Of a stretch of DNA of 64,000 nucleotides, positions 43,803 to 64,000 are shown in pieces. The notes beneath the pieces are model-generated. The model worked only from the letters and a program-made list of their open reading frames with translations, had not been told where the DNA came from and made no database searches. The number at the start of each line of letters is the position of its first letter. Positions within the stretch are counted from its first letter, which is position 1. Location of the stretch: assembly GCA_033763455.1 (NCBI GenBank), contig JANRKO010000043.1, positions 32,001 through 96,000 on the forward strand, read 5' to 3'. The position numbers were made by a program, and so were the translations under genes. This DNA comes from Polyangiaceae bacterium. Lineage in GTDB: Bacteria; Myxococcota_A; Polyangia; Polyangiales; Polyangiaceae.

Positions 43803-44163
43803 GTTGCAGAAGTTTTCGCGGGGAGGCCGTGAGCTTCGGCCCCCACTTCGCCTCTCGTTGAGAATTGCTCCGAGTCCTTTTGGCGGGCTTAGGCACACGG
43901 ACACCCTTTTCGTTGCGACTCAGATACTTCGCATGACAAGTACCTGTCGCGGTCCGAAAACCCTCGCTGGTTGCTTCACTGATAGCTCCAGAAGCCCTTT
44001 CGCGCGTCATCGGTAGTGAGAGCTTGCCTCCATTCAAAGTCATCGATCGCCTCCATCAAGGAATGGAGCTGCGACGGCTTAGTTTCGTCACTTGCGTCGA
44101 ACGACTCTTCCTCCCCACCACCGGGCGAGAAGAACCCGAAGAACCCTCTCCACTCGGGAATTC

Positions 44164-44211
44164 TGGTGTCCAGGGACGGAATTGAACCGCCGACACGAGG
44201 ATTTTCAATCC
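44164..44211 (-). pseudogene. 3' half of tRNA-Phe(GAA); att core at the island boundary
   Basis: Minus strand reads GGATTGAAAATCCTCGTGTCGGCGGTTCAATTCCGTCCCTGGACACCA. No D-arm or 5' acceptor strand is present upstream. Confidence 0.88.
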
Positions 44212-47700: not shown

Positions 47701-50195
47701 GAACAAATCGTTGCGTGCGTACATCTGAACGATGCCAGGCGAGGCCGCTACGCTTGGCCCTCTGCCTAGCAGGTCGCAATTAGGAGTGCCAAACGTAGGC
47801 ACCGCAAGCGGCGGGGGTGAACCCGCCCAAGCCTTGGAACAATTCCAATCACCACGCCGTGCAACCGCAAGCCCCCTAAGATCCACGCGCAGCTGAAAGG
47901 GCTCGACGATGCCGGACGTGGTGGCTCGATCTTTGAGTGGTCCTGTGGGCACTTGGGTGCCCCAGGCGTCACTGAGGGCCGTTCCCAAGTTATCTCCGAC
48001 GTTTAGAACTGGCCAGCTTCCTGGATCAAAAGCCTGCCCATTCACCTTGATGAGCGTGCTTGTGTTGTTTCGATAATCCATCGCAAATTCTAGCGTGAAG
48101 CTCCGCACCTCGTGCAAGACTCCGGAGAAGTGTTGTTCGCCGGCGGCGCTTGCGAACTCGGCATCGTCCATTGCGAAGGTAACACCCCACACTTCGCTAT
48201 AAGAAAGGTTTCCCGGCGCAGTGCCCACAGGCCACCCTTCGGGGTGATACCTGGAAAGGCGCTGGATGAACGCAAACATCCCGTGGTTGGAAGGGCCCAT
48301 CTCGGCTAAATTGAGTCCACGGCCATTGCTAGCTCCAGGGGCCGGAGAAAGGGCGTCGAGTGCGCCCGTCTGAACGTTGGGCCGCTTTTCAACGCTACCG
48401 CGTTTGTCGAATACCTCAGCGAAGAGCGTCGTAGCGCTCTGCTTGTGAGCTTCCCACAGCTGCACCACACCATCCGGCTGCGCTGGAGTAGTAGCGCCCC
48501 CGGAATCGGTGAAGCCCTGTGTTCGAAATGGCAGAACACACTGCGAGAGATCGAACAGGCAGTTAGGGCGGCAGCGTACCACGCCGCCTGTAAGCTTACG
48601 ACCTGGAGTCGCTTGTTCGCGGGTTTGACCAAGTGCTTTGATTCGGAACTGGCTGTATACACGGTCGCAAGTCAACGGTGTGATCCCGTCGTCATCGAAC
48701 ACGGCGCCCCCGGCGGCTCCCACGTCACATTGCTCGAAGAGCGCGTCTGCTCCCGTCGTGAAATCGACAACACCGTTGCCGCAGCCAGGAACCGCGGGAT
48801 TAGTACTCACTCCCAGCGCGGGGCTACACGCCGACGTTTCCGCGAGCACCGCTGAATCGCATGAGGTCAAATACGGAGCCGCGTGGTTGGGATGGCCCAG
48901 CGCGTCCGACCCCGGGCACTTAAAACCTGAAGCCTGCCCTCCTTGAAAACAAGCGAATTCCACGCCTGGACTGTTAGATAGCGTGGGCACTTCGCCGTCG
49001 CCGACTCTGCCCGAGGTCCCCTGCGGGTCGGGCTTGGGGATCTCACGACCCGACGGCGAAAAGCCGTTGGGCTGGTCGTCGGTTGAAGGGTATAAGAAGC
49101 CTGCCAGAACCAGTTGATTGCCCGGAAATTGATACGTGTCCGGGCGGGCTGGCTCCGCAGATACATCGCCTCGGGTTCGGTCAAAACGATCCACATCGTG
49201 ATTCGGTGAGACGGAGTACTCGCTGTTGTTGGGGATACCAGCGGTCAGGCAGAGTTGGAAATCTCCCGCTTGAGGCGTTCGCGCGCCGGAAGTACCGCCG
49301 GTGTAGTAGGTGGCACAATCCGCATCCGTCATGCATGCCTTATCGGTCCACGTGGGATCCACCTCGCTCGGCGCCAAACGGTCCGTATCGGATCGGCAAG
49401 CTGCCCGCTGGCTTGTTGCATCAGCGAGTTGTTCTGCGCCCACCAGGGCGCGCCAAAGCCCTCATACAGAGGGGATCCATCCAACTTGAGCGCAGGATCC
49501 GGAGGCAGCGAAGCTTCAGAAAATGGGTAACCATAGCGAGGATTCACAAAGAGCGACAAGCCACCAATGGTGCGGCTAGGACGCCCAGTGAACCCCGTTG
49601 AGCGAAAGTGCGGGTTATCATCGCCACGTTGATCTGAGTAGTAATCTTCAAGGCCGAACAGCAAATGCCCCAGCTCGTGCGCCATCAGCTGAGCCTCGTG
49701 CCCGTGGCTCCCCGCAAGGCCAGTAACAGTGAGCCTGCCAACGTTACTGAGTGCTTGCTGCACGTTCCTGCAGGTCATTGGGCTTCCTTCGCCGAAGCTT
49801 CCTGAGGAGAACGCGCGCTCGTCTTGGCCGCGCCATAGAATATCCGCATTCTTCTTCTCTGAAGGATGATTGACGAATTCGACACGCTCGATGCTGACCA
49901 GGCCGTCGGTGGTGTCGCAAATGGTCTTCGAAGCGCCTGCCATCTGCTGCTTGAATTCGCTAAAGTCAGAAGCTGTGCGCGGAGAATCCACGAACACTTT
50001 GAGTGCCACGTTGACGCGTGCAAGAGACCCATCTGCTCCAAAAACCGGTGTCATCGTGCCCTTGCCGGGGAGCGTGGACGCGCCACCAGGCATTGCCTGC
50101 CCGGAAGCTGGCGTTCTCTGACTGCAAACCGCCCCAATACCGATGCCCAAAGCGCAAGCTGCGCCAACCCAAGTTCGTTTCCGTGTCCCGCTCAT
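44743..50195 (-). pseudogene. CLCA-like secreted zincin-vWA-TSP3-PKD/HYR protein (~1,817 aa), broken by a frameshift (~49,399) and an in-frame TAA (47,050-47,052)
   Basis: AHELGHLLFGLEDYY; vWA DKSGS before the stop, GGTETGRAL and LSDG after it in the same frame; DADGDGIP repeats; ANAGPDQ; DTTPPVL. Confidence 0.8.
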
Positions 50196-50360
50196 GAGCT
50201 CCAGCTAGCGCGAAAGCGATAGAGCTTGCAACCCTTGGCCGTGTTACAAAAGTGTTGCGAATCGCCGAGCACAGCTGGAGTGGAATGGGGCAAGAATAGG
50301 CAGCATCAAGTTGACGCCTTTTGCGGCTCGTGGGACCATACCGCCTAAGGTGGCACCAAC

Positions 50361-51503
50361 GTGAACCAGGCGAAACGAAGGCTAGGTTTCTGGATGGCGG
50401 CGGGGCTGCTCGCACTGGGTGGAGTGAGCACTGCTGGGTGCCGGGGCGGGACGAGCGCGGCACCTTCAACGTCTCCAAGCACAGGTGGAGGAGGTGATGG
50501 TGCGGCTGGGGCGCCTGTCGGTGCCGTCGGTGGAGCTCTGGTGCCGGGCACCGGGCTACCGTGGCCGCCGCCGAACCTGCTTCTGTTCATTGGTTATCAC
50601 AATTCTTTGGGCATCCAGGTAGACGACAAGTACCTGTATTGGTCTGACGCAGCGGGTTCGTCGTTCATGCGAGCCGACAAGACTGGCGCTGGCGAGCCCC
50701 AAGAAATTGTGCGATGCGCATGTCACCCCCTGCGGTTCGTTGCTGACAAGGCGACGGCCAGCCTTTACGTTCTCAATAGGGATCGTGTGCTGCAAGTGGA
50801 CAGGGAGACATTCGTTCAAACAGCGTTGCCCCTGGACTGGGACCACACTAGTGGCGACCTCTTCGCCGATGACCAGTACATTTACACCGCCATGCACGGT
50901 TGCGCAGCTATTACGCGCTTCGACAAGCTCTCGCACGCAAAGGAGGTAATGGGCATCTCTGGGGTCAAATACCCAGCGCGCGCAGGTTATACAACGCTTG
51001 GCAAGGCAGGCGGAAAGCTCGTCTGTAGTTCCCCCACCGAAGTTTATGTGATCGACACCTGGGGCCAGGGCGGCCGGCGTGTTTACGATCAGGGCAACAG
51101 CTTGTGGGGCATTACTGGGGTATCCGACAGCGCATACTGGGTTGACTCGGATGTGGTCACAAGAGTGGGATGGACGACGGTGGGCCCAGAAAGTGTTAAT
51201 CTGATTTCAAAGGAAGCCAGGGGTCGACCCAGCCGGTTGCTCTACCTGCCAACCCTTGAGAAACTGGCTTTCGCCTCCGGCTTTGGCATCCAGAGCTTCA
51301 GCCCCGCGACGAACCAGTTTGACGGTTTCGCAGCGGTTGGCGTCTTGGCTCAGTTTGGAAGTTCGGCTATCATTGATTTCGCTGTGGACTCCGAGTTCGC
51401 GTATGCCACCATGTCAGGCGGCAGAACTCATATCGTTAACGGAGTATTGCAAGGCGACGTTGCCTCATGGATTGCGCGCGTTCCGTTGGATGCGTTGAAG
51501 TAG
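50361..51503 (+). CDS. Lipoprotein with beta-propeller-like repeats
   Basis: STAGC lipobox; VDDKYLYWSD, ADDQYIYTA and VDSEFAYAT blade-like motifs. Confidence 0.75.
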   Translation: MNQAKRRLGFWMAAGLLALGGVSTAGCRGGTSAAPSTSPSTGGGGDGAAGAPVGAVGGALVPGTGLPWPPPNLLLFIGYHNSLGIQVDDKYLYWSDAAGSSFMRADKTGAGEPQEIVRCACHPLRFVADKATASLYVLNRDRVLQVDRETFVQTALPLDWDHTSGDLFADDQYIYTAMHGCAAITRFDKLSHAKEVMGISGVKYPARAGYTTLGKAGGKLVCSSPTEVYVIDTWGQGGRRVYDQGNSLWGITGVSDSAYWVDSDVVTRVGWTTVGPESVNLISKEARGRPSRLLYLPTLEKLAFASGFGIQSFSPATNQFDGFAAVGVLAQFGSSAIIDFAVDSEFAYATMSGGRTHIVNGVLQGDVASWIARVPLDALK

Positions 51504-51554
51504 AGCCACCATCGCGGGACGAGCCTAGCCAACCCGCGTGCCAGAGAAGATATG

Positions 51555-51700
51555 CAGGTTATCATCGCCACGTTGATCTTGATCTGAGTAGTAATCTTCT
51601 AGACCGAACAGAAAATGCCCGAGTTCGTGCGCCATCAGCTGGGCATCGTGCCCGTGCCTCCCTGCAAGTCCGGCTTCATTGGTGAGCGCCTGCGGCACCT
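51555..51700 (-). pseudogene. Relic of a second CLCA-like gene (HExxH segment only)
   Basis: GLAGRHGHDAQLMAHELGHFLFGLEDYYSDQDQRGDDN, versus GLAGSHGHEAQLMAHELGHLLFGLEDYYSDQRGDDN at ~49,615-49,720. Confidence 0.85.
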
Positions 51701-51740
51701 GCGAAACTTGTGGTGCCCGCTGAACCGCCAGCCCCAACCC

Positions 51741-52262
51741 TTAAGGATACAACGGGGAACATACTAGTTGCTCAGTCTCCAGCCGATCGCACTTCTTGCC
51801 AAACCGCCCACTCACGCTTCCCAGTTGGCACGGAGCGAATAGGGTGGATTGGACGCCGACCAGCTGAAGTTGCGCATCAAAGTGATAGCCGGTGCCACGC
51901 TCCGCAACTACTGAGATGCCACCACACGAATTCTTATAGCGGTAAATGTCACCATAGATGCGGTTAAACACTTGGTCGCAGACTGAAAGAGCCTCGTCAG
52001 GGCTTTTCGGACAGTTCTGCCCGGGGCCTCCGCACACACAACTGAGAACCCTCGCTGAACATTCGTCAGAACAATCGCTACTCAGGCTCTCTGTGGCTCC
52101 ACCCACTCCGACAGATCCACCACTTCCCGTGGCTCCGCCGATCCCCGTCGGCAAGCTACCGGCGAGCGCTGGGTTCACACCGTCGTCAATCGCGGTGCCA
52201 CCACAGCTGGCAACGGCGACGCCCGTTGCGAATATAAAACTCTGCATCATCTTCATGGGCAC
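51741..52262 (-). CDS. Cys-rich lipoprotein with Gly/Ser/Thr linker
   Basis: VAVASC lipobox; Cys-rich C-terminal domain. Confidence 0.7.
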   Translation of the reverse strand: MPMKMMQSFIFATGVAVASCGGTAIDDGVNPALAGSLPTGIGGATGSGGSVGVGGATESLSSDCSDECSARVLSCVCGGPGQNCPKSPDEALSVCDQVFNRIYGDIYRYKNSCGGISVVAERGTGYHFDAQLQLVGVQSTLFAPCQLGSVSGRFGKKCDRLETEQLVCSPLYP

Positions 52263-52353
52263 GTTGCCTGGTCAGCTTCCGGTAAACGCGTACTCTGCGT
52301 GGATTCCATGAGAGCACAACAAGAGAGGAAGCCTCGCCCAAAAGTAACGACGT

Positions 52354-52873
52354 TCCCGCTCATGACCTCCAGCTAGCGCGAGAAGCGATGAGCTTGCAAC
52401 CCTTGCTTGCGTTACAAAAGTGTTGCGAATCGCACAGCACAGCTGGAGTGGAATGGGGCAAGAATACGCGGCATCAAGTTGACGCCTTTGGCCGCGTGTG
52501 GGACCGTACCTCCTCAGGTGACACCAACGTGAACCAGGCAAAACGAAGGCTAAGTTTCTGGATGACGGCGGGGCTGCTCGCACTGGGTGGAGTGAGCACT
52601 GCTGGGTGCCGGGCTGGGACGAGCACGGCACCTCGGGCGCCTGTCGGTGCCGTCGGTGGAGCCCTGGTGCCGGGCACCGGCCTACCGTGGCCGCCGCCCA
52701 ACCTGCTTCTGTTCATTGGTTATCACAATTCTTTGGGCATTGAGGATTTCGCCGCGGACTCGGAGTTCGTGTATGCGACCATGTCAGGCGGAAGAACTCA
52801 TATTGTTAATGGAGTGTTGCAAGGCGATGTTGCCTCATGGATTGCCCGCATTCCTTTGGATGCGTTGAAGTGA
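52354..52873 (+). repeat. Direct-repeat copy of 50,186-50,614 joined to a copy of 51,374-51,503
   Basis: Near-identical by eye, including the intergenic DNA and both gene starts. Confidence 0.9.
52529..52873 (+). pseudogene. Internally deleted (in-frame) copy of the propeller lipoprotein, 114 aa
   Basis: Same N- and C-termini as 50361..51503; net deletions of 42 and 756 nt. Confidence 0.8.
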
Positions 52874-53697
52874 AAGCCACATTGAATCCCGCCACACCGG
52901 CGCCGTGGGTGGTTGCGGTACTTGTCCCCGCATTCAATGAGGCGGACGCCATCGCGGGAGTAATTCGGGAATATCTGGCCCTCTCCCGGGACTTTGCTGG
53001 GCATAACCTCCGCTTTGAACTGCATATTATCGACAACGGTTCGACGGATGGAACGGCCAAAGTTGCTGCATCTGAATTGCATCTGGCACGGGACTGCCAC
53101 GTGCACCGCGTCGCTGTTCGCGGCAAAGGTAACGCCGTTCGATGGGCGTTTTCGAATATTCAGGGTGACTTCTACGTACTCGTGGACGCCGATCTGAGCT
53201 ACTCCATGACCGATATCCCGGCGCTTGTCGCGATTGTGGCCAACGGCATCTGTGAGATGGCAGTAGGCGATCGGCTTATCGGCGGCGCATACCGCAAGGC
53301 GCACGGTCCGGATTTTCGATGGGCTGCAAACGAATTTGTATCTTGGGTCATCGGGTGGAGCCTTCAGCAATCCCGCGTCGATGCGCTGAGCGGGCTGCGC
53401 GTCCTCCATGGACCGCTAGCACGTTCCATGGACCTTCGTGAAGGTGGCTTTGCCCTTGAAACTGAGCTGATGTTCGAAGCTGCGCGGTTGCGTGCGCGAA
53501 TTCATTCGTTGCCTGCTGTCTATCGGGGGCGGCCAGCTGGGCAGAAGTCGAAGCTCGTCACCTCGAAAGATGGCCCGATTATCCTTTGGACTCTTGTTCG
53601 ACGACTACTCGCCCACCACACTAAGTCCAAACGCGCGTCGGTTGCCCGCAGCGCAGTAGTCCGTCACCGGGGCTCCGATTCCAGCATGGAGCGGTAG
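52870..53697 (+). CDS. GT2 polyprenol-phosphate glycosyltransferase (DPM1/GtrB-like)
   Basis: VPAFNE, IDNGSTDGT, GKG, VDADLSY, SGLR, GFALETE. GTG start overlaps the upstream TGA. Confidence 0.88.
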   Translation: MKATLNPATPAPWVVAVLVPAFNEADAIAGVIREYLALSRDFAGHNLRFELHIIDNGSTDGTAKVAASELHLARDCHVHRVAVRGKGNAVRWAFSNIQGDFYVLVDADLSYSMTDIPALVAIVANGICEMAVGDRLIGGAYRKAHGPDFRWAANEFVSWVIGWSLQQSRVDALSGLRVLHGPLARSMDLREGGFALETELMFEAARLRARIHSLPAVYRGRPAGQKSKLVTSKDGPIILWTLVRRLLAHHTKSKRASVARSAVVRHRGSDSSMER

Positions 53698-55361
53698 TAG
53701 CTGAGCGCGCGGGCAGTACTGGGTTGCGTTGGGTCCAGTTGTTGGGCGCGCTCTAGAGTCTCCACGGCCTTTCGGTAGTGCCCCGTTGCGCCGTAGGCCT
53801 CGCCTAGGTTGTGGTGTATTTTCCAGTCACCAGGGCGCCCCGATGCCGCCCGTTCATAGAATGGCAATGAGGCGTGATGCTCACCATCGCGAAAGTACTG
53901 GTTGCCCAACAGGTAAAAAAACGAGGCCTCTTGGAGCCTATACGCGGGAGACCAAGAGACTAAGGACAGTGATGTTGCGACCCCGCCTAACGCCCACCGG
54001 AGCGGAGAAGCGCTCCGAGTAATGGCGGCACGCAAACCGTGCGCGGACATAATGCACAGCACTGGAACGGCCGGTACTCTGTAGCGGCTAGAGAAAAAGA
54101 AAATCAAGACTGACACAAGGTTTGTGAGCACTATGCACCCGAGGAGCGCGGATTTTCCAAACAAGAAACGCCTCCTCATTCCGAGCATCGCGAAACCTAA
54201 AAGCGCTCCAAACGGGAGCGGCATCAACCAAAGGCTGGGGTGAATCGAGCGTTCCGCAGAGAGTACGTATTCCATCGAGATTTCGTCGCTCCCGAACCAG
54301 CCCCGGAGTTTCTTTGCCCAGAGGATCGCCGCGTCTCCGAGGTTCGCACGCAAGTAGCTCAGCCCTTGTTGATACCAGTAGGCGTCCACTTCCTGGGTGG
54401 TAGCTCTCCTTCCAAGAGCTTTCTGTGCGACTTTAGTCGCTTCGTCCGCCTGCGTTATCGGATCCCCTGAGAGCCCAGCTAGCTGAGCGTAGGCACCTTC
54501 CGAGTTAGGGTTGTTGCCTTGAGCGAACGTAACGCCGCCTTGTGCGGAAATGAGGACCCACTCGCCCGAAACAGCACGGTTGCGAAATGTGGCAGGGGCG
54601 ATACCGACGCCAATGCCTGCTAGCAGAATGATCACGGGCCCCGAGCGTTTCCCTATTTGTCGGGCGCGCCAGGTACCTCGCGTCAGAAGCCACAGGCCAG
54701 CGAAGGGGGCCAAGAGTAACGTATTCGGTCGGGCAAGGCAAGCCAAGCCCAAGGCGAGCCCACCGAGTAAAGGCCATCTTAGGTTTCTTCCACGCGACGG
54801 AAGCATTAGGTACACGCCTAAGAGCGTCAGGAAAGTTCCGAGAGTTGTTTCAACGACGGTGAGCTCCAGCACTCCCGCAGCCCCATATAGGCACCAAAGA
54901 AGGGCTGCAATGGTCGCAGTGTGGTGGCCGAATGTGGCCAACCCGAGCTTGTATACGAGCCAGACCGTCAGCGCCGAGAGCCCTACCTGCGAAAGATAGA
55001 CAGCCCAGATGTTACCGCCCACAAGTTGGATCGCCCCTAGGTAATACGCATACAAGGGCGCAAACGAAAATGGCTGCGATCCCAAGAGAGTAGATCCCTT
55101 GGCGATCGATGTAGCCGCTTCCCAATATCGCTGCGAATCTAATGGTAGGAAATGCTGCTCGGTCGGGCTTGATGTCGCAAGATCCCACAAATAGGCGCCA
55201 CGCGTTAATGCGAACAACAGCACCACGGCATGCCACTGTTGCCACTTGGTCCGGCCTCCGATGGGCGGCGTTGCCGGGGACCTGACGTCCAGGGACTGGG
55301 ATGCGTCCGGCAACCTTTTCTTTGCACCTCCGCGCTTGGGGCGGGCCCGAGTGCGGATCAC
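53664..55361 (-). CDS. GT-C fold glycosyltransferase (ArnT/PMT-like) with C-terminal TPRs
   Basis: LDSQRY loop, APLY, many TM helices, LARPN, SRYRVP, TPR HHNLGEAY. Confidence 0.82.
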   Translation of the reverse strand: MIRTRARPKRGGAKKRLPDASQSLDVRSPATPPIGGRTKWQQWHAVVLLFALTRGAYLWDLATSSPTEQHFLPLDSQRYWEAATSIAKGSTLLGSQPFSFAPLYAYYLGAIQLVGGNIWAVYLSQVGLSALTVWLVYKLGLATFGHHTATIAALLWCLYGAAGVLELTVVETTLGTFLTLLGVYLMLPSRGRNLRWPLLGGLALGLACLARPNTLLLAPFAGLWLLTRGTWRARQIGKRSGPVIILLAGIGVGIAPATFRNRAVSGEWVLISAQGGVTFAQGNNPNSEGAYAQLAGLSGDPITQADEATKVAQKALGRRATTQEVDAYWYQQGLSYLRANLGDAAILWAKKLRGWFGSDEISMEYVLSAERSIHPSLWLMPLPFGALLGFAMLGMRRRFLFGKSALLGCIVLTNLVSVLIFFFSSRYRVPAVPVLCIMSAHGLRAAITRSASPLRWALGGVATSLSLVSWSPAYRLQEASFFYLLGNQYFRDGEHHASLPFYERAASGRPGDWKIHHNLGEAYGATGHYRKAVETLERAQQLDPTQPSTARALSYYRSMLESEPR

Positions 55362-55702: not shown

Positions 55703-56587
55703 CTATCGATACGCTAGAGCCGACGAGGAGATCCTCGGCCCATGACAAGATTTCTTGCAAAGCCATTTCGCAGACCACACATTTTCTGGAGATAGCTTCG
55801 GTCCGAGGATCAGCTCAACGAGCGACACGCCATCTCGAAAAGCGAGCGGCACGTACGGCGCGATTCCAAAACGGTTGTTACCGATTTCATACAGGCCCAC
55901 CGACTCCACGACGGTTCGGGCGATGATCCGCCACTCGCGTTCCTCGTAGTAGGGTTCTCGCTTCACCGTCGGGTTAAGCTGATGCATGAGCGCGATGAGA
56001 GTATTCTCTACCTCCGTGGGGCTCCGGAAGCTTGGGAGATACTTTTTGAGCAAGGCTGACACCAGCGGCCGCAGGTTGCTTGAAGCGTGGTCCTCCTTCG
56101 CGCCATCGTAGCGTACGCGAACCAGCTCGGTTGCCGTGCGCCATGGCTTGCTTGACGCACCTGGAAGTTTGTCCCCTTGAATTCTAAATCCAAGCGCGAC
56201 GCCTGATCCATTGTCACCATAGCGAGACCATTGACTCAGTGAGTCGCGAAGTTCGGTGAGGCTAAACAAGAAGGTCGGCGGTAGCTCCGGACGGCTGAAA
56301 TCAAAGTATGAAAGAGCCCCCGTGGCTTTGCCAAGGTGCAAAAGATCGATCGTCTCGTGGCGCGGTGAGGCGGCAACTGCGTTCGCCCAACACTCGGAAA
56401 CCAGTTGGGGGGCGACGATGCTATCAGCCGGGTCATTCATAAATGCGTGGCAGCCTAGGTGGAGCGAAGATGTTGAGAGAATCGCTATGGCAGCTGGGAT
56501 CGTTGTGTAGTGCCACAAGACGTCCGGTGGCGTGACGTCTACCAAACCATCGGCAAGATCTTTCAGCAGCCGAACGTCGAGCAACAT
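55703..56587 (-). CDS. DUF2971-like protein
   Basis: LWHYTT, MNDP, FSLTE..DSLSQWSRYG..G.GVALGF, K...Y.EEREWR. Confidence 0.8.
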   Translation of the reverse strand: MLLDVRLLKDLADGLVDVTPPDVLWHYTTIPAAIAILSTSSLHLGCHAFMNDPADSIVAPQLVSECWANAVAASPRHETIDLLHLGKATGALSYFDFSRPELPPTFLFSLTELRDSLSQWSRYGDNGSGVALGFRIQGDKLPGASSKPWRTATELVRVRYDGAKEDHASSNLRPLVSALLKKYLPSFRSPTEVENTLIALMHQLNPTVKREPYYEEREWRIIARTVVESVGLYEIGNNRFGIAPYVPLAFRDGVSLVELILGPKLSPENVWSAKWLCKKSCHGPRISSSALAYR

Positions 56588-56801: not shown

Positions 56802-57788
56802 TCACTGTCGTTGAGAGCTGCCGCGCGGGAAGGCCTCGCCACGGAATTCAGGTGTTGGTGGTTGCTGTGTTCGGCCCTCGGCTCCGGCCTCACTCCCCGG
56901 CTCCAAGAAGAATGTCACGCGCGCGACGCTACCTGGGGTTTCCCCGGGGAATTCGAACTTGGAACCCACACAGAGGCTGGTGCGTTTGAGGCCGCCCGCA
57001 TGCCGTGCGTGGAAGGAGGCCAAGACTGGGCCTCCCCCGCTGCCTTCCCGGAACTCAAGATCGAGTCCAGTGCTCACTAGATCGGCGCCCACGACACGAA
57101 GAAAAGCGAGGGTTCGTGCATCGTGCTGGCAGGCGTCCTCCTGCGACAAACATACTCCCTCAGCGGCAAGACTACTGCGCGCGCACATCCACAGGTTTCT
57201 CGACTCTGTGCACGGGTTGTTTGCGCCACGCAAGTAGATTGCGGAGAGATGAAGATGCCACGCCTCGTCATCCTGAAGCTGAACGCCACACACACCGGGA
57301 ATGCACAGTGCTCCGGATGTACACGGATTGCAGTGGGTGCTCCCAGCTTCGCACCCGCCTTGGCCAGCATTATCGGTCGTTACTGGGCACGACGCACCGC
57401 CGCAGCAAGGCACGTCACAGGAGGCCGAGGTTAACGCGCCGGTCCAGCCGTTTTGCGATGAGGCTGCAGGTGGTGGTGCCGTTGCGCTCGCAGGAAATGT
57501 TGTCACGGTTGACGGCGCCGCGGGTGCTTGCACAGTCTTGCTTGAGCCGGAGCACATCCTTACCGCAACGACGGATAGCACAGCAGCCCCAGCGACCAGA
57601 CCAAGCAAGGGCCAACCAGGTCGCTGTCCGTTGGAAGAGGTAAGCAAGTCACGGTTCGATGGGGTGATGCGGGCCTTGCCAGTCTCGGCACGGAGCGCCG
57701 AGCGAGAAGTCTTTTGCTCCGCCGCCGCCGCCGGCGCATCAAGGACCAGAGGCGCCAAGCGTTTGCGTCCAGTTTTGGGCTCGGTCAC
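56802..57788 (-). CDS. Single-TM protein with Cys-rich extracytoplasmic domain
   Basis: TM WPLLGLVAGAAVLSVVAV, P/T/A linker, many Cys. GTGA-coupled to the upstream gene. Confidence 0.7.
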   Translation of the reverse strand: MTEPKTGRKRLAPLVLDAPAAAAEQKTSRSALRAETGKARITPSNRDLLTSSNGQRPGWPLLGLVAGAAVLSVVAVRMCSGSSKTVQAPAAPSTVTTFPASATAPPPAASSQNGWTGALTSASCDVPCCGGASCPVTTDNAGQGGCEAGSTHCNPCTSGALCIPGVCGVQLQDDEAWHLHLSAIYLRGANNPCTESRNLWMCARSSLAAEGVCLSQEDACQHDARTLAFLRVVGADLVSTGLDLEFREGSGGGPVLASFHARHAGGLKRTSLCVGSKFEFPGETPGSVARVTFFLEPGSEAGAEGRTQQPPTPEFRGEAFPRGSSQRQ

Positions 57789-59509
57789 TCCGTTGCTCCC
57801 TGGGTGCGGATCGCAAGCACGGGGGGCGAGCCTGTGACGGAAACTTGGAGGTGGGAAAGCTTCAGATCGAGGCCGCCATAGGTAAGCTCGGGGAGCGCCT
57901 TCAGAACTTGGCTTCCGTTAAACGAGTAGGCCGCGCCTTTCCGTTGAGCAAACTGTGCGGCGATGGGCAGCAAATCCCCAAGGCAAGGGGACAACACTTG
58001 AGTCTCGCCCACCTTGCTCGCGCAATTTACGTGAAGGTCCGAGACCTTGCCCGTCAATTCAAGAATGTCCGCTTTCTGATTTACGTCCATGTTTAGTTTG
58101 GCGTGCCCCCAAACCGTTCGCGTGTCCATGCTCCCGAGCTTTACGGCGCCCAGGGCCATGCTAAGCGGACTGCCAGCAGAACTCGACGCCGCTAGGGTCG
58201 GAGGAAGCATGGGATCCACCCCATCGAAGGTGAAGGCCGCAATCTTGAGTCGATCACTGAGTGCGTCGAATACGAACGCGGATTTTCCCCACTCGCTGAG
58301 GAACCCCGTGTCCCACACATAATGAAGGATCTGGCTTGTGGCGTTAGCGTTGAGGGATAGAGTGATAGCGGCGTCTCCCGTGGTCACTGTTTCTGCGGGA
58401 GCGAGGCCTGGAAAATAACTTGAGCTCGGGCTACCGGCACCGTGCGTTCTCGCCGCTGGCGCAATTCGGAGGCACATTGGGAACGAGAGCCCGGTCGGAG
58501 AAACTTTCGGAGCATCTGACAGACGGATCTCAAATGCGTCGTTGGGGCGTGCTTGCAGTGGGTAAATCGGGCGGGTCATGCCACTAAGCGTTCGGGATAG
58601 GTCCGCCAGGGCCCCGTATAACGTATCGTTCACCTTCTTCTGCGTTTCGAGCGGGATCTTCTGAGTGGCTGTGCCGGAGCCAGCGTTCGCGCCCAAGTCT
58701 GCTCCGGCGAGGCCCCCTAAAGCCGCGCCGACCGGGCCCATTAGCGCACCAACAGCCAATCCCCAAAATCCGCCCTGTCCCGCCCCGCACTGTTCAGCTT
58801 GGGCAAGGATCTGGTTTTTGAAGTCACCGTCGAACAAGTGTACCACCGGCACTTCACCAGGTCTCAGATGGATCTGAATCGCCCCTTCACGCTCCTCCAT
58901 TTCTAAAGCGGCGGAGAGCCAGAGCCAGGGGGTCCCTCCAGACCAGATGGTAATGCCTACTCGCGCAAAGCCCTCCTCGAAATCGATTGTTGTGCTAACG
59001 CGCTCTACCTCGGGGTAAGGCACATCAATGATGCATCCAGATTCTTCGGTTTGAAGCCTGCCGTGAATCTTCGACTTCACCATCCGTTCCACGGCGTTCG
59101 CTATTCCGCTCCCTGCTCCCGCCGTCTCAAAAAGCCCCGCACCCATGCTCACCGAGTAGCCGCAAACGAAATCATCCGCCTTGTAGGAGGGGCCAACCAG
59201 CACCGGCCAGGTGACTTCACGTTGATAAGTGGGCCCGTAGTTCATTTGCCATGTTGTCAGGGAAAGGCCAGTGTTCATCAATCCTAGGAACTTTTGGTCC
59301 TGGGTCGCGCCATGGGGATATAGACTAACACCCAATCCAGATGGCTCTATTTGGGTGAGTGATCCCGCGGTGCCAAAAGGAAGCGAAGCTGGAACTGTAA
59401 CTTGGAGATCCTTCTGACCAGAGGTAGCCCCCAGAAGGGCTGGCAAGCTGATCCCCAACGCGAGGAGAACTCCAAGCCCCACTTGTGTCGATGTCTCCAT
59501 TGCTCTCAT
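57785..59509 (-). CDS. Exported 574-aa protein with internal glycine zipper; possible BPI/TULIP-like lipid-binding fold
   Basis: N-terminal signal/TM; GLAVGALMGPVGAALGGLAG; ITLSLNANATSQILHYVWDTG. ATGA-coupled to the upstream gene. The fold is an inference. Confidence 0.65.
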   Translation of the reverse strand: MRAMETSTQVGLGVLLALGISLPALLGATSGQKDLQVTVPASLPFGTAGSLTQIEPSGLGVSLYPHGATQDQKFLGLMNTGLSLTTWQMNYGPTYQREVTWPVLVGPSYKADDFVCGYSVSMGAGLFETAGAGSGIANAVERMVKSKIHGRLQTEESGCIIDVPYPEVERVSTTIDFEEGFARVGITIWSGGTPWLWLSAALEMEEREGAIQIHLRPGEVPVVHLFDGDFKNQILAQAEQCGAGQGGFWGLAVGALMGPVGAALGGLAGADLGANAGSGTATQKIPLETQKKVNDTLYGALADLSRTLSGMTRPIYPLQARPNDAFEIRLSDAPKVSPTGLSFPMCLRIAPAARTHGAGSPSSSYFPGLAPAETVTTGDAAITLSLNANATSQILHYVWDTGFLSEWGKSAFVFDALSDRLKIAAFTFDGVDPMLPPTLAASSSAGSPLSMALGAVKLGSMDTRTVWGHAKLNMDVNQKADILELTGKVSDLHVNCASKVGETQVLSPCLGDLLPIAAQFAQRKGAAYSFNGSQVLKALPELTYGGLDLKLSHLQVSVTGSPPVLAIRTQGATE

Positions 59510-61035
59510 CCTCCAAACATCTGGAGCAACATGATCGTAAAGAGCTCGGTGATCACGACAAAAAGAGTCGCGCGCATGACCGACGAAGTCATGGCTGCAG
59601 TAACCTGATCGGAGCGCGACTTTGGCTCAGCGCCCTTGGCGACAACGACCGATGCAAGCGCGAGCTTGTAGGCAATTACCGACCAAAGAGCACGAATGAG
59701 GTAAGGACGCCGTTCTGGCGGTCGAGCGACGAAGTCTGTGAGCAGGACTTCCATCGCATGTTCAACACCGTGTGATTCGTACAAGACGTAGCCGCCAACG
59801 GCCATGGCAATGGTGAAGATCGCAAAGGTTGCCAGATAGGAAAGAGAAAGCCCGAGCCACGCCGGTGACCATAAATACCGACGCGCTGGCACGCCCAAAC
59901 CCTCCAGCGCCGCTACCTGACCATTCACGCGCAAGCCGCCAAGCCAAGCACTGATAGCCGAGCCGCTGGTGGCGACGAAGATGATCGCCGAAAGCGGTGG
60001 TGCTAGCGACAGGATGTACGTGCCTTTTATCAAGGTGAAGACGGCCCGGGGTTCCAGGTCCTTGCTGATATTCGCTATGACATAGGGAACGGTGAACCCG
60101 AGCAACATACCGACGACTGCGTAGAACAGCGCCGGACGAACAAGGCTTTGGATCAGCGTTCGCCGCAATACAACCATGGACTCGCGGAAGAGGTGCGGCT
60201 CTCCAATGCCACGGATCGCTTCACCCGCGATGCGAAATGGAGCCAGAAAGTCGCCAAAATTGGGAGCTTTGGCTTTGCCGCTAGCACTTGGTTCTCGCTC
60301 CCGGAGCAGTAACTCTTCCACCGTGGCGTCGAGTTGAACCTGCCGTTGCTGTCGAACTTCGGGGTCATCCAGTTCGGTTGGGCCAGACCAAGGCTCAATC
60401 CGGGTGAGCGAGTGATCGTTGGGCTCAAGAAAGTAGATCTCGTCAGCAGCGCCACCCGCCAGTGAAATATCATGGGTAATGACAATGACACCCAGCTTGT
60501 GCTTCCGCGCTTGGGTTACCAGGAGCCGAGCGAGCATTCGGACGCCCACCGGATCGAGCCCGACGGAGGGTTCGTCCATCACCACAAGCTTCTTGCCAGC
60601 CGCTAGAACCCTCGCCACGGCGAGGCGCTGGGCCTGTCCGCCACTGAGCGTATCTACGCCCCGTCCGGCGCTCCCAATCGCGCCATCCAAGTCGACAGCT
60701 TCAAGCCATGCGGTAGCGTCAAGCTCAGCGCCGCAGGCAGCTTGGGCAAGCTTGATATTGTCCGCGGCATCCAAGTGGTCTAGCAGCGCACCTCGCTGCG
60801 GGACGTAAGCCGGCTCACCGGTGACGATCCGCTCCACCCAGTCCACCGTGTAGCCCAACCGTTGCAGCTCATCTGGCGCAAAAATAGCCTTTAGAAGGGT
60901 ACTTTTGCCAGCGCCAGACGGGCCGAGGAGAACCACCACCTTGCCCTCGTGGAGGCTGAGCGCCACGCGCTCAAGCGCCAGCGATCCGTTGGGAAACTGG
61001 ACCGTTAATCCTTGGACGTCAGCAAGTGTGCCCAT
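59506..61035 (-). CDS. Fused ABC ATPase + MlaE-family permease (MlaF-MlaE-like single chain)
   Basis: GPSGAGKS, LSGGQ, VVMDEP, ITHD; then LAPPLSAIIFVATSGSAISAWLGGLRVNGQVAALEGLGV..RYLWSP and VTAAMTSSV. Confidence 0.85.
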   Translation of the reverse strand: MGTLADVQGLTVQFPNGSLALERVALSLHEGKVVVLLGPSGAGKSTLLKAIFAPDELQRLGYTVDWVERIVTGEPAYVPQRGALLDHLDAADNIKLAQAACGAELDATAWLEAVDLDGAIGSAGRGVDTLSGGQAQRLAVARVLAAGKKLVVMDEPSVGLDPVGVRMLARLLVTQARKHKLGVIVITHDISLAGGAADEIYFLEPNDHSLTRIEPWSGPTELDDPEVRQQRQVQLDATVEELLLREREPSASGKAKAPNFGDFLAPFRIAGEAIRGIGEPHLFRESMVVLRRTLIQSLVRPALFYAVVGMLLGFTVPYVIANISKDLEPRAVFTLIKGTYILSLAPPLSAIIFVATSGSAISAWLGGLRVNGQVAALEGLGVPARRYLWSPAWLGLSLSYLATFAIFTIAMAVGGYVLYESHGVEHAMEVLLTDFVARPPERRPYLIRALWSVIAYKLALASVVVAKGAEPKSRSDQVTAAMTSSVMRATLFVVITELFTIMLLQMFGG

Positions 61036-61152
61036 CTGGAAATTCTCTCTCAGGTCTTTGATTATCTAATCTGTGGGTCCAAGCGGCCGCACAACTTCGG
61101 GCGTGTGCGTCCCATCACAGTCAAAATCGTAAGATCCATTGATGGCGGTGCG

Positions 61153-62136
61153 TTAGCGACAGGCCGCGGGCGCAAGGGCTTGCGGGAAGCACCCGACTCC
61201 GGGCACGGCGTAGCAACTGGCCACCGCTCCGCCACAGTACGCATTCCCACCTGGAGGCAGCTGACGGCTTGTTGCAGTCACACCTCCACCGGCACAATTG
61301 GTGCCGCCCGTTGACACGCAAGAAGAAACCGGTGTGAGTTGGTCTGCGAGGTCCTCAACGCCATCACAGTTAACGTCAAAGCTACCGTTAACCGGAACGC
61401 GCGTGCTGCCGAGAGAGTTTGGATGCCACAGGTAGTCATCGTCGTTGCAATCTCCCGAGACGTCGACCCAATTCGTCACATCAATCGGCGGCCGCTCGCA
61501 AGAATCAACAAATTCGACGCCTCCGTATTCATCGAAGTCTTCGTCTTTGTACCATCGCTTCGTAACGCATGTCCCACCGGCGCCCGCTGATCCGCTGGTC
61601 GAGCCACCAAGGCTTGACGTTCCCCCCGGGGCCGAGCGTCCGCCAGTAGGCGATGAAGATTCGCCTCCCGAGGATGGGAACCCGCCGCTGGATGAGCCCC
61701 CTTGATCGAACCCCCCGCCACCAATTTGGGCCGCACCCCCAAGTGAGATGAGAATCCCACCAAAACTTCCTGTAGCAAGGCTCCCCCCCGAGCTCGACGG
61801 ACCTCCGTTGCCCCCGAGCCCTGACGACGCTGCGCCCCCTACGGAGTGATTGCCTCCGAGCGCAGATGCAGTCGCGCCTGAAGCGACAGGTGTTCCCGGC
61901 GTTCCGCCGCTCGGGCTCCCACCCGCGGCATTGGCCGCGTTGAACGCGCTGTCATTACCGCAGCCCGCGGCATGCCAGGCGCTGAAGCAGGCGAGCGCGA
62001 GCAGACGAAACCTTCGGCCGCCACTTCCGAGCCTAAGGGCAGCCAGGACAGATCTGTGGGCATTGCGCGGAAGAGCGCAGAGCGGCTTACTTTTGTTTCT
62101 CACGGTGACCCTCTCTGAGTACCTTGAGGGAATCAC
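61153..62136 (-). CDS. Lipoprotein with long Gly/Ser linker and MopE-like putative metal-binding repeat
   Basis: HAAGC lipobox; WYKDEDFDEYG...GDCNDDD...HP...DVNCDG. Start uncertain. Confidence 0.72.
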   Translation of the reverse strand: MIPSRYSERVTVRNKSKPLCALPRNAHRSVLAALRLGSGGRRFRLLALACFSAWHAAGCGNDSAFNAANAAGGSPSGGTPGTPVASGATASALGGNHSVGGAASSGLGGNGGPSSSGGSLATGSFGGILISLGGAAQIGGGGFDQGGSSSGGFPSSGGESSSPTGGRSAPGGTSSLGGSTSGSAGAGGTCVTKRWYKDEDFDEYGGVEFVDSCERPPIDVTNWVDVSGDCNDDDYLWHPNSLGSTRVPVNGSFDVNCDGVEDLADQLTPVSSCVSTGGTNCAGGGVTATSRQLPPGGNAYCGGAVASCYAVPGVGCFPQALAPAACR

Positions 62137-62193: not shown

Positions 62194-62589
62194 CTACCTG
62201 CGCGGTTTCTTGTTCGAGCCGCGGCGGGGCTTCGTGGGTGGGGAGGCGACATGTGGGCGATGACTGGCTGCCGCTCGCAGAAAGTCGTGCACCAAGGGGC
62301 GGATTTCGTCAGGAATACTCTCAGCAAGCTGGGAAACCTGCTCGGACCAGGCATTGGTTGAGGGGGCGGGCTTCTCCAGAAGCCTACCCAAGGATACGCC
62401 AAGCGCTCGGCCAAAGGCCGCTACAGTTTTCAACGTTGGGAGCTTTCTGGCGGTCTCGATCAGCGCGACGTAATGAGGGCTGATCGACGCTCGCTCGGCT
62501 AGCTCGGCTTGTGTGTACCCGCGACTCTGTCGGAGTTCCTTCAGGTTTTCCGAGAGTTGCACGGCTAGGGCGGCCTCAACCTTGTCCAT
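62194..62589 (-). CDS. XRE/Cro-C1 family HTH regulator
   Basis: NLKELRQSRGYTQAELAERASISPHYVALIETARKLPTL. Confidence 0.9.
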   Translation of the reverse strand: MDKVEAALAVQLSENLKELRQSRGYTQAELAERASISPHYVALIETARKLPTLKTVAAFGRALGVSLGRLLEKPAPSTNAWSEQVSQLAESIPDEIRPLVHDFLRAAASHRPHVASPPTKPRRGSNKKPRR

Positions 62590-62649
62590 TGGGCACAGGA
62601 AAGCCCGCTTGGGTGGGGTCTGACGATGCACCACGGGGGCACAATCAAT

Positions 62650-63549: not shown

Positions 63550-63732
63550 CGGGCTTTGCGGAACGAGCTGCATCAATTCTTGGGGCGCGAGTAGGTAGTT
63601 GGGCAGTGTCCAGTGAAGGACGCTTGGGCCAAATTTTGTCCACTTCCGCGGCTGCACTGTTGCTGAGACCCTCTCGGTACGTAAGAAGCCCCCACCACTC
63701 GGGGGTTCATGCTCAGAGCACTCAGACCCCCG

Positions 63733-64000
63733 ATGCCCGCTCCTCGCTACTTGACCGCACGCGACATTGCCGCAGAGCTCAGCGTGTCGCGGGCCCACGC
63801 CTACCGAATGATGCGGGAAATGTTGCACTTTCGGCGTGGGCGCCTTCTTCGGGTCCCACGAGCAGCGTTCGAAGTGTACATTCACCAGCGAGAGAAAATC
63901 GGATGGGCCAGCGCCTCTTCAAGCGAAATGGAACTTGGTACGGGTGGGTCTTCGACTGCGAAGGCAAACGCATCCAGCGCTCCACAAAGTGCCGCGACAA
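63733..64000 (+). CDS. Excisionase-like HTH protein (3' end outside the window)
   Basis: Own translation: MPAPRYLTARDIAAELSVSRAHAYRMMREMLHFRRGRLLRVPRAAFEVYI. Not in the ORF track because it has no stop in the window. Confidence 0.8.
   Translation, partial: MPAPRYLTARDIAAELSVSRAHAYRMMREMLHFRRGRLLRVPRAAFEVYIHQREKIGWASASSSEMELGTGGSSTAKANASSAPQSAAT
63903..64000 (+). CDS. Probable tyrosine integrase, N-terminal arm-binding segment only
   Basis: MGQRLFKRNGTWYGWVFDCEGKRIQRSTKCRD, a three-strand W-Y...G.R...ST pattern. Confidence 0.6.
   Translation, partial: MGQRLFKRNGTWYGWVFDCEGKRIQRSTKCRD

Follow-up and report, generated by a model that had tools for sequence, protein, structure and literature searches.

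How lipids cross the periplasm is still debated, and the machines known to carry them are MCE rings, AsmA-like bridges and the jellyrolls of the Lpt system. Bacterial proteins of the TULIP fold are known too, but we know of neither an energy source nor a membrane partner for them. In described MlaE/YrbE systems, according to the available passages of PMC7790496, a permease dimer offers lipid in an outward-open pocket to an MCE ring that is held by N-terminal helices; MlaEFD has been proposed as the ancestral core (PMC10665443, available part). The TULIP-fold members treated in the accessible portions of PMC5507252 and PMC6791001 carry lipids in a hydrophobic tunnel. Here we analyze a locus in 64,000 nucleotides (nt) of DNA, hereafter the window, from a Polyangiaceae bacterium (assembly GCA_033763455.1, contig JANRKO010000043.1, which is contig C43 of genome G000 in our numbering). 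Four open reading frames (ORFs) lie in a row on its minus strand (Table 1). Two of them are the subject of this work: a 509-amino-acid (aa) protein that joins an ABC ATPase to an MlaE-like permease (the fusion) and a 574-aa extracytoplasmic protein (the partner), which has no MCE domain and is predicted to be a double TULIP.

The translated fusion shows the motifs of an ABC ATPase (GPSGAGKST, VPQRGAL, LSGGQAQR, LVVMDEPS and ITHD) and a set of MlaE-like strings (LAPPLSA, GSAISAWLGGLRVNGQVAALEGLGV, RYLWSP and VTAAMTSSV). Pfam placed ABC_tran at residues 21-157 (75.9 bits, cut-off 25) and MlaE, PF02405, at residues 294-500 (64.6 bits, cut-off 22.5; profile positions 9-209 of 212), which bears out an earlier note on this DNA that had described an ABC ATPase joined to a C-terminal domain of MlaE pattern. 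When the MlaE-like domain was compared with solved chains by phmmer, it matched 6ic4/6z5u (E 7.7e-8; chain residues 46-256 of 257) and also 7ch8 and 6xbd. The AlphaFold2 model of the fusion, built on 21 relatives, was confident (pLDDT 90.6, pTM 0.86), and in it the permease domain is predicted to take the whole-chain fold of solved MlaE. Its helix layout, interfacial helices plus five transmembrane helices, agrees with the description of MlaE in the passages of PMC7790496.

The fusion is a family and not a one-off. Among the 120 best homologues listed, 119 carry PF00005 and PF02405 in one chain of ~500-580 aa; where the source names their organisms, these are Polyangiaceae, Sorangium, Minicystis, Myxococcales and Deltaproteobacteria. 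A whole-genome scan with PF02405 found three canonical MlaE genes in G000 at 234-268 bits, beside the divergent fusion at 66.8 bits. In a tree of permease domains, the fused domains form one clade (100/100), set apart by long branches from the three canonical MlaE proteins of the same genome. Copies within the clade cluster by taxonomic family, and the window copy stands with its own family and order (96/92). The fusion thus belongs to a distinct clade far from canonical MlaE, which supports the earlier suggestion of a distinct class of transporter. The tree leaves out one copy, L064:9261-10810 (G024:C15), in which an apparent frameshift near residue 384 breaks the fusion into two overlapping ORFs (414 and 149 aa); the partner downstream of it is intact (558 aa).

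Is the partner as constant a feature as the fusion? An even sample of 401 genomes of the class was searched by profile for both proteins. The fusion occurred in 97 genomes and the partner in 103, and every one of the 97 fusion genomes had a partner. Most of the six genomes with a partner only were assemblies that are incomplete or had matches that were weak and partial or lay at a contig edge. With 99 fusion loci in the 97 genomes, the copy number is about one. At 77 of these 99 loci, partner and fusion share a strand, and the partner match starts between 3 nt ahead of the fusion match's end and 281 nt beyond it; at 10 more, it is on the fusion's contig but farther off or on the opposite strand; at the other 12, it lies on a different contig, several times with the match at a contig end. 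The counts include two unpublished genomes, G365 (adjacent pair) and G395 (partner only), without which they become 96/399 for the fusion, 101/399 for the partner and 76/98 for adjacency. Most occurrences of the pair fall in two families (34 of 71 and 50 of 67 genomes); in the family of the window it is rare, with 1 of 33 genomes and, in addition, 2 of 3 congeners. The congeners G001 and G003 carry it with the partner adjacent, and G002 is without the fusion. A phylum-wide sample gave 16 positive genomes out of 401, seven of them outside the class, and the partner was adjacent in three of those seven.

Twenty neighbourhoods of fusion homologues, from different families, were fetched. One was cut off; in 18 of the other 19, the fusion is followed by an ORF of 487-620 aa that in most cases overlaps the fusion's stop codon, and an iterative profile search linked all of these ORFs to the 574-aa protein, to which they are just 14-35% identical. 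The window itself has an ATGA overlap between fusion and partner and a GTGA overlap between the partner and the 328-aa ORF that follows; both can be read directly in the sequence, in agreement with the coupling described earlier. When 150 neighbour ORFs from the 20 loci were searched with Pfam, no neighbour was conserved across families. We conclude that the conserved unit consists of two genes, the fusion and its partner.

The 574-aa protein itself has no match in Pfam or NCBIfam. Word-indexed homologue searches, one with this single protein and one with alignment A1, returned the query alone, which reflects the sensitivity of such a search and not an absence of relatives, because an exhaustive profile search found many. 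A 19-sequence partner profile, run against 1.84 billion representatives, matched 670 clusters at E<=1e-3 and 198 at E<=1e-30, nearly all of 500-620 aa. The named members that we looked up are all annotated "hypothetical protein," and this family of 670 clusters is currently without a name and outside Pfam.

An AlphaFold2 model of the partner (19 sequences; pLDDT 78.6, pTM 0.76) begins with the N-terminal helix and a small beta domain of lower confidence. From residue 115 to the end, it is predicted to form two barrels, each a helix wrapped by a sheet, with a long helical hairpin inserted between them. Foldseek ranked BPI, CETP and LBP first for this model (E 1.6e-11 to 5.1e-10, probability 1.00), and in an independent look-up in the ESM Atlas the clusters of the partner's neighbours carried LBP_BPI_CETP families. 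The two barrels would thus stand as a TULIP pseudo-dimer, the predicted fold being that of BPI, LBP and CETP. Of the 19 partners, 18 have a hydrophobic 19-mer at the N-terminus, as do 114 of 134 full-length representatives. Residue C496 is invariant and sits in a conserved C...PC motif, which fits an extracytoplasmic location.

Two further features of the partner were observed. Window positions 58630-58760 (partner residues ~250-295) encode a glycine-zipper-like hydrophobic stretch inside the long hairpin; it gives weak C19orf12-like and Gly-zipper matches in a few members, is missing from several members of family f32, and could be a membrane-dipping element. Weak partial matches to profile positions ~270-490 also occur in other, larger ORFs of many Myxococcota genomes (for example, G227:C6:287890-288591, G623:C105:44614-45288 and G575:C36:8761-9342), a sequence likeness which suggests that a wider family may share the C-terminal TULIP barrel.

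MlaE-family permeases of the described systems usually have an MCE protein encoded alongside, and ATPase and permease are separate chains. Neither holds here. None of the 52 window ORFs scanned matches PF02470, and the three PF02470 (MCE) matches of the genome are on contigs C78, C33 and C28, none of them on C43, so the lack of an MCE gene at the locus, remarked on before, is real. No PF02470 match was found among the 150 neighbour ORFs either. Perhaps the partner is itself a divergent MCE protein? We rejected this candidate: 0 of 19 partners match PF02470 at E<=1, and a profile-profile comparison (hhalign) of the partner with the genome's three MCE proteins gave a probability of 0.04%. A cryptic MCE barrel in residues 36-105 was considered as well; the sequence and profile tests spoke against it, whereas the fold comparison (VIA), whose list holds no MCE row, barely probed that part of the model. 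Together with the presence of the partner in all fusion genomes, these data support the pairing with a conserved non-MCE extracytoplasmic protein that the earlier note had put forward.

We lean towards the reading that this is an MlaE-type ABC half-transporter for which a TULIP tube anchored in the membrane, and not an MCE ring, receives or supplies a lipid or another hydrophobic cargo. The fused half-transporter would dimerize with itself. The partner would be held at the inner membrane by its N-terminal hydrophobic helix, with the double-TULIP tube as its extracytoplasmic body, and would take the place that the MCE ring (MlaD, Mce or TGD2) has in described MlaE-family systems. ATP use by the permease dimer would lift a lipid or hydrophobic molecule from the inner membrane, or push one into it, and ATP-driven closure of the pocket would hand the cargo to the partner's TULIP tunnel or receive it from there. 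By analogy with what LptC does for lipopolysaccharide, the anchored tube might then relay cargo towards or from the outer membrane, which it may reach alone or through end-to-end pairing. A complex predicted from two copies of fusion residues 250-509 and two of partner residues 1-230, with their own alignments and without controls, scored 0.02 with a mark of 0.32, which counts neither for nor against binding.

Several points weigh against this reading. Contact between fusion and partner is something that we infer. The N-terminal half of the fusion is an ordinary ABC ATPase, not specifically MlaF-like: its best PDB sequence matches are the nucleotide-binding domains (NBDs) of ABCA3 and ABCA1 (6e-26 to 5e-22, against 1e-17 to 4e-17 for MlaF), the VIA comparison puts MlaF 7ch8_J (Z 21.4) level with many others at 20-22.6, and no MlaF model is among the top 25 NCBIfam matches of the fusion. 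The TULIP assignment rests on a model predicted from a shallow alignment of 19 sequences; by sequence, the partner shows no relationship to BPI, to DUF4403 or to a solved structure. Specifically, 0 of 19 partners match PF01273, PF02886 or DUF4403 at E<=1, and the partner profile hit no BPI chain in the PDB, where its best match (E 0.034) was an unrelated chain. Some lineages have unlinked fusion and partner genes. In genus g109, the partner is 91 kb from the fusion in G252 (C1, L056), on other contigs in most other genomes of the genus, and 1.4 kb away on the opposite strand in G090; in G087:C94 and G254:C101, it lies ~20 kb away, also on the opposite strand. Four more divergent fusion-positive genomes outside the class have no adjacent full-length partner detectable with this profile. 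The N-terminal segment of the window partner, where LLGATSG is a candidate signal-peptidase site, could be a cleaved signal peptide. Finally, an MCE protein encoded elsewhere could serve the fusion in trans, because the canonical Mla genes are dispersed in this genome.

These last points lead to an alternative that we think unlikely: the fusion would work with an MCE ring encoded elsewhere, and the TULIP protein would be a released periplasmic shuttle, in the manner of MlaC, or an accessory. The canonical Mla genes of G000 are scattered as two MlaE genes alone (C39 and C35), one ABC ATPase with an MCE gene, one MCE gene alone (C33) and one MlaE with an MCE gene, so that adjacency is evidently not needed; the candidate cleavage site and the unlinked partners of g109 suit this alternative as well. 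However, the three MCE genes already match the three canonical MlaE genes, the fused clade is parted from canonical MlaE by its long branches, and the neighbourhoods of fusion homologues hold no MCE gene. Moreover, many partners have no A-x-A-like site at all after the hydrophobic helix.

How, then, would an anchored TULIP tube fed by an MlaE-type transporter compare with described systems? In MlaFEDB of Escherichia coli, Acinetobacter baumannii and Pseudomonas aeruginosa, ATPase and permease are separate and the partner is an MCE hexamer, whereas here they share one chain and the partner is a predicted double TULIP; no MlaB, MlaC or MlaA is encoded alongside the pair, and the permease reaches 65 bits where the genome's canonical MlaE proteins reach 234-268. 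The mycobacterial Mce systems (YrbEAB with MceA-F and MceG) differ in the same way, the Myxococcota pair having no MCE proteins and a fused architecture. LptB2FG-LptC offers an analogy: an ABC transporter whose transmembrane-domain (TMD) fold is related (PMC7790496, available passages) gives inner-membrane lipid to a single-pass-anchored periplasmic lipid-binding protein. This is analogy and not membership: LptC is a beta-jellyroll, not a TULIP, and LptF and LptG have six transmembrane helices. Foldseek with the whole fusion chain gave ABCG half-transporters as the best full-length matches (E about 1e-11), and ABCG1, ABCG5/G8 and ABCG2 likewise have an NBD followed by a TMD in one chain and handle lipids and sterols. 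However, the ABCG domain has six transmembrane helices plus re-entrant helices, and that of the fusion is of the five-helix MlaE type (PMC7790496, same passages).

On the partner's side, the double TULIPs BPI, LBP and CETP are eukaryotic, and DUF4403 was predicted by Levine in 2019 to be a bacterial BPI homologue (PMC6791001, available part). In contrast to these, the partner has three additions (an anchor at the N-terminus, a beta domain and a long hairpin of helices), its gene is coupled to that of an ABC transporter, and 0 of 19 partners match their profiles. TipA-TipB of Bdellovibrio (10.1101/2025.09.09.675085) offers a bacterial BPI-like double TULIP whose gene overlaps that of its operon partner by 4 nt. 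TipA differs from our partner in being secreted and in having a small beta-sandwich as its mate; no transporter partner is named in the passages available from that report, which treat Mla as background only.

We wondered, with TipA in mind, for which such a role has been proposed, whether the TULIP protein might be a secreted BPI-like weapon or lipid scavenger in myxobacterial predation, which the fusion would load or release, or from which it would protect the producer. As is generally known, BPI-fold proteins kill or bind Gram-negative envelopes. One of the Atlas neighbour clusters is commonest in Bdellovibrionota, and TipA provides a precedent for a secreted bacterial double TULIP (10.1101/2025.09.09.675085, in the passages available). 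We nevertheless give this explanation a little less credence than the one that invokes an MCE ring in trans. The conserved N-terminal hydrophobic helix and the tight translational coupling to the permease better suit a resident complex, and among the neighbour ORFs of the 20 loci no TipB-like small beta-sandwich gene is conserved next to the partner. No secretion-system genes are conserved nearby.

Of the genes around the pair, two had been taken for parts of the system. Neither the 328-aa protein nor the putative lipoprotein has a match in Pfam or NCBIfam, and the MopE-like repeats attributed to the latter drew nothing at E<=0.1 from either; its sequence does show a lipobox-like AAGC and a C-terminus rich in Cys and Asp. 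Neither protein has a blastp match in any of the 20 related loci, and both genes are missing from the pair-bearing congeners G001 and G003, the lipoprotein gene being present in G002. The 328-aa ORF has one unlinked relative, 34% identical, in another genus (G024), and for this reason it is probably a real gene but a local passenger. We conclude that the 328-aa protein and the lipoprotein are local additions and not part of the conserved module. Hence, of the gene arrangement expected at homologous loci, the 574-aa gene and the lack of an MCE gene are conserved and the 328-aa gene is not. Of the DNA just downstream of the operon, the glycosyltransferase portion also occurs in congener G002.

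In one clade (families f43 and f38), the pair has other neighbours. In two of three f43 loci (L059:7001-9727 and L061:6135-8861), the fusion is closely preceded by an MMPL/RND transporter that gives sterol-sensing-domain matches. Downstream, the partner is followed by a flavin adenine dinucleotide (FAD) oxidoreductase of lycopene-cyclase/halogenase-like type, immediately in L060:12196-13563 and L061:12263-13624 and after ~1.1 kb in L059:939-2480. The pump and the oxidoreductase are a possible hint at cargo.

Such neighbours might also be taken to mean that the pair does not move membrane lipids but provides efflux of, or tolerance to, hydrophobic xenobiotics or secondary metabolites made by the cell itself, and Mla homologues were first described as the toluene-tolerance Ttg2 proteins. 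We consider this improbable. Neighbours vary from locus to locus, with no biosynthetic cluster conserved in the 20 loci, and about one copy per genome with a tree that follows taxonomy suits a housekeeping envelope function better.

The local copy has an island-like setting. The window is housekeeping DNA from 1 to 43.8 kb (DnaK/DnaJ, carA, dihydroorotase, MiaB-like and DinB), and beyond 44 kb most of its ORFs are without a family. A tyrosine integrase ORF starts inside the window, at ~63.6-63.9 kb; past the window end follow an ISL3 transposase, a tRNA-Cys and then housekeeping genes such as uvrB. Integrase, transposase and tRNA-Cys lie within 2.8 kb, the integrase-next-to-tRNA arrangement of an island. 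At the left edge of the variable region is a fragment of tRNA-Phe, 96% identical in three congeners where the surrounding DNA is ~70-75% identical, and not called as a tRNA; an intact tRNA-Phe is found at G000:C20, ~214 nt from the contig end. Integration may have left this fragment as a scar, or it may reflect rearrangement or misassembly. Rfam gave one sub-threshold small-RNA match only in 43.7-44.7 kb. Repeats in 40-64 kb were considered as element borders and rejected, being an internal direct duplication: window 49609-50619 and 51553-52871, in the ORFan region left of the operon, share blocks of 27-280 nt that are 89-96% identical and ~1.4-2.2 kb apart. A search of sequencing runs for the locus listed no RNA run and, among DNA runs, just two from sediment metagenomes with small shares.

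A single mobile element carrying the pair is argued against by four results. No copy of the 26-nt 3' end of tRNA-Cys, at <=3 mismatches, occurs in the window, so a direct repeat at the far border is missing; window 45.0-55.2 kb also occurs in the fusion-free congener; each of the three congeners has the left flank on one short contig and the right flank on another; and the gene tree agrees with taxonomy. The 150 neighbour ORFs contain no integrase or transposase family, and the other loci are chromosomal. The spread by an integrative element that the earlier note envisaged is therefore not borne out, and island-like DNA is confined to the local copy. We read the local copy as lying in a variable, recombination-prone, island-like stretch, and the family as mainly chromosomal and patchily retained. 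One machine made of all four genes (lipoprotein, fusion, 574-aa and 328-aa) and spread in this way, for which the ATGA and GTGA overlaps, the tRNA-Phe fragment at 44.2 kb and the integrase, HTH_17 gene, ISL3 transposase and tRNA-Cys within about 1.5-4.3 kb might speak, is largely refuted by these results and by the lack of the two outer genes in all 20 related loci and the pair-bearing congeners, and we think it very improbable. In sum, the fusion, its distinct clade and its conserved non-MCE partner stand from the original interpretation; the extra genes and the mobile spread do not.

Table 1. Features of the locus and its surroundings (window coordinates unless a locus, L071, is named)
Feature	Coordinates	Strand	Remarks
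Fused ABC half-transporter, 509 aa	59506..61035	-	ATPase ~residues 1-245; linker ~245-264; MlaE/YrbE-fold permease ~250-509
MlaE-like transmembrane domain of the fusion, residues 250-509	59509..60288	-	phmmer matches to solved MlaE chains; clade 100/100
Partner, 574 aa	57785..59509	-	Hydrophobic anchor or signal 2-30; small beta domain 36-105; predicted double TULIP 115-574; inserted helical hairpin 229-312
Cys-rich ORF with a single transmembrane segment (one hydrophobic helix), 328 aa	56802..57788	-	GTGA overlap with partner; lineage-specific
Gly/Ser-rich putative lipoprotein, 327 aa	61153..62136	-	Gene end 117 nt upstream of fusion start; no family match
XRE-type helix-turn-helix (HTH) regulator	62194..62634	-	Pfam HTH_31 and HTH_3
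Tyrosine integrase ORF, start	63606..64000	+	Extends to window-equivalent 65024; L071:1606-3024, Phage_integrase 64.3 bits
HTH_17 (excisionase-type) ORF overlapping integrase	63709..63999		HTH_17 28.1 bits
ISL3 transposase	L071:3064-4287		Just outside window; DDE_Tnp_ISL3 205.6 bits
tRNA-Cys	L071:4349-4423		Just outside window
tRNA-Phe(GAA) 3' fragment, 53 nt	44159..44211	-	Anticodon arm to CCA; possible attachment (att) scar, left edge of variable region
DUF2971 protein; GT2 glycosyltransferase; PMT_2/TPR membrane glycosyltransferase	55703-56587 (-) and 52837-55361		Just downstream of operon; Pfam

What is new here, our data suggest, is that an ABC transporter of the MlaE family has an extracytoplasmic lipid-handling partner of another class. 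A full-text literature search, covering papers other than subscription-only ones, turned up no report of an MlaE-type transporter coupled with a TULIP or BPI-like protein; the TipA-TipB preprint and Levine's prediction on DUF4403 came nearest. More tentatively, and as a possibility that we would not yet call probable, the pair could be a myxobacterial envelope lipid conveyor new to science, in which an MlaE-type ABC transporter feeds an anchored BPI/CETP-like TULIP tube: a bacterial counterpart of the eukaryotic hand-off from ABCA and ABCG transporters to BPI-family proteins. Bound for the outer membrane, its cargo may be a lineage-typical lipid: a sterol, ether lipid, sphingolipid or carotenoid. 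If this is true, the MCE ring would not be the sole extracytoplasmic adaptor that MlaE-family permeases can use. The pairing gives bacterial TULIP proteins a candidate motor and the MlaE family a second kind of partner. The small size of the system, just two genes, would ease purification and imaging, and the pairing may bear on the origin of the lipid hand-off from ABC transporters to BPI-family proteins in eukaryotes.

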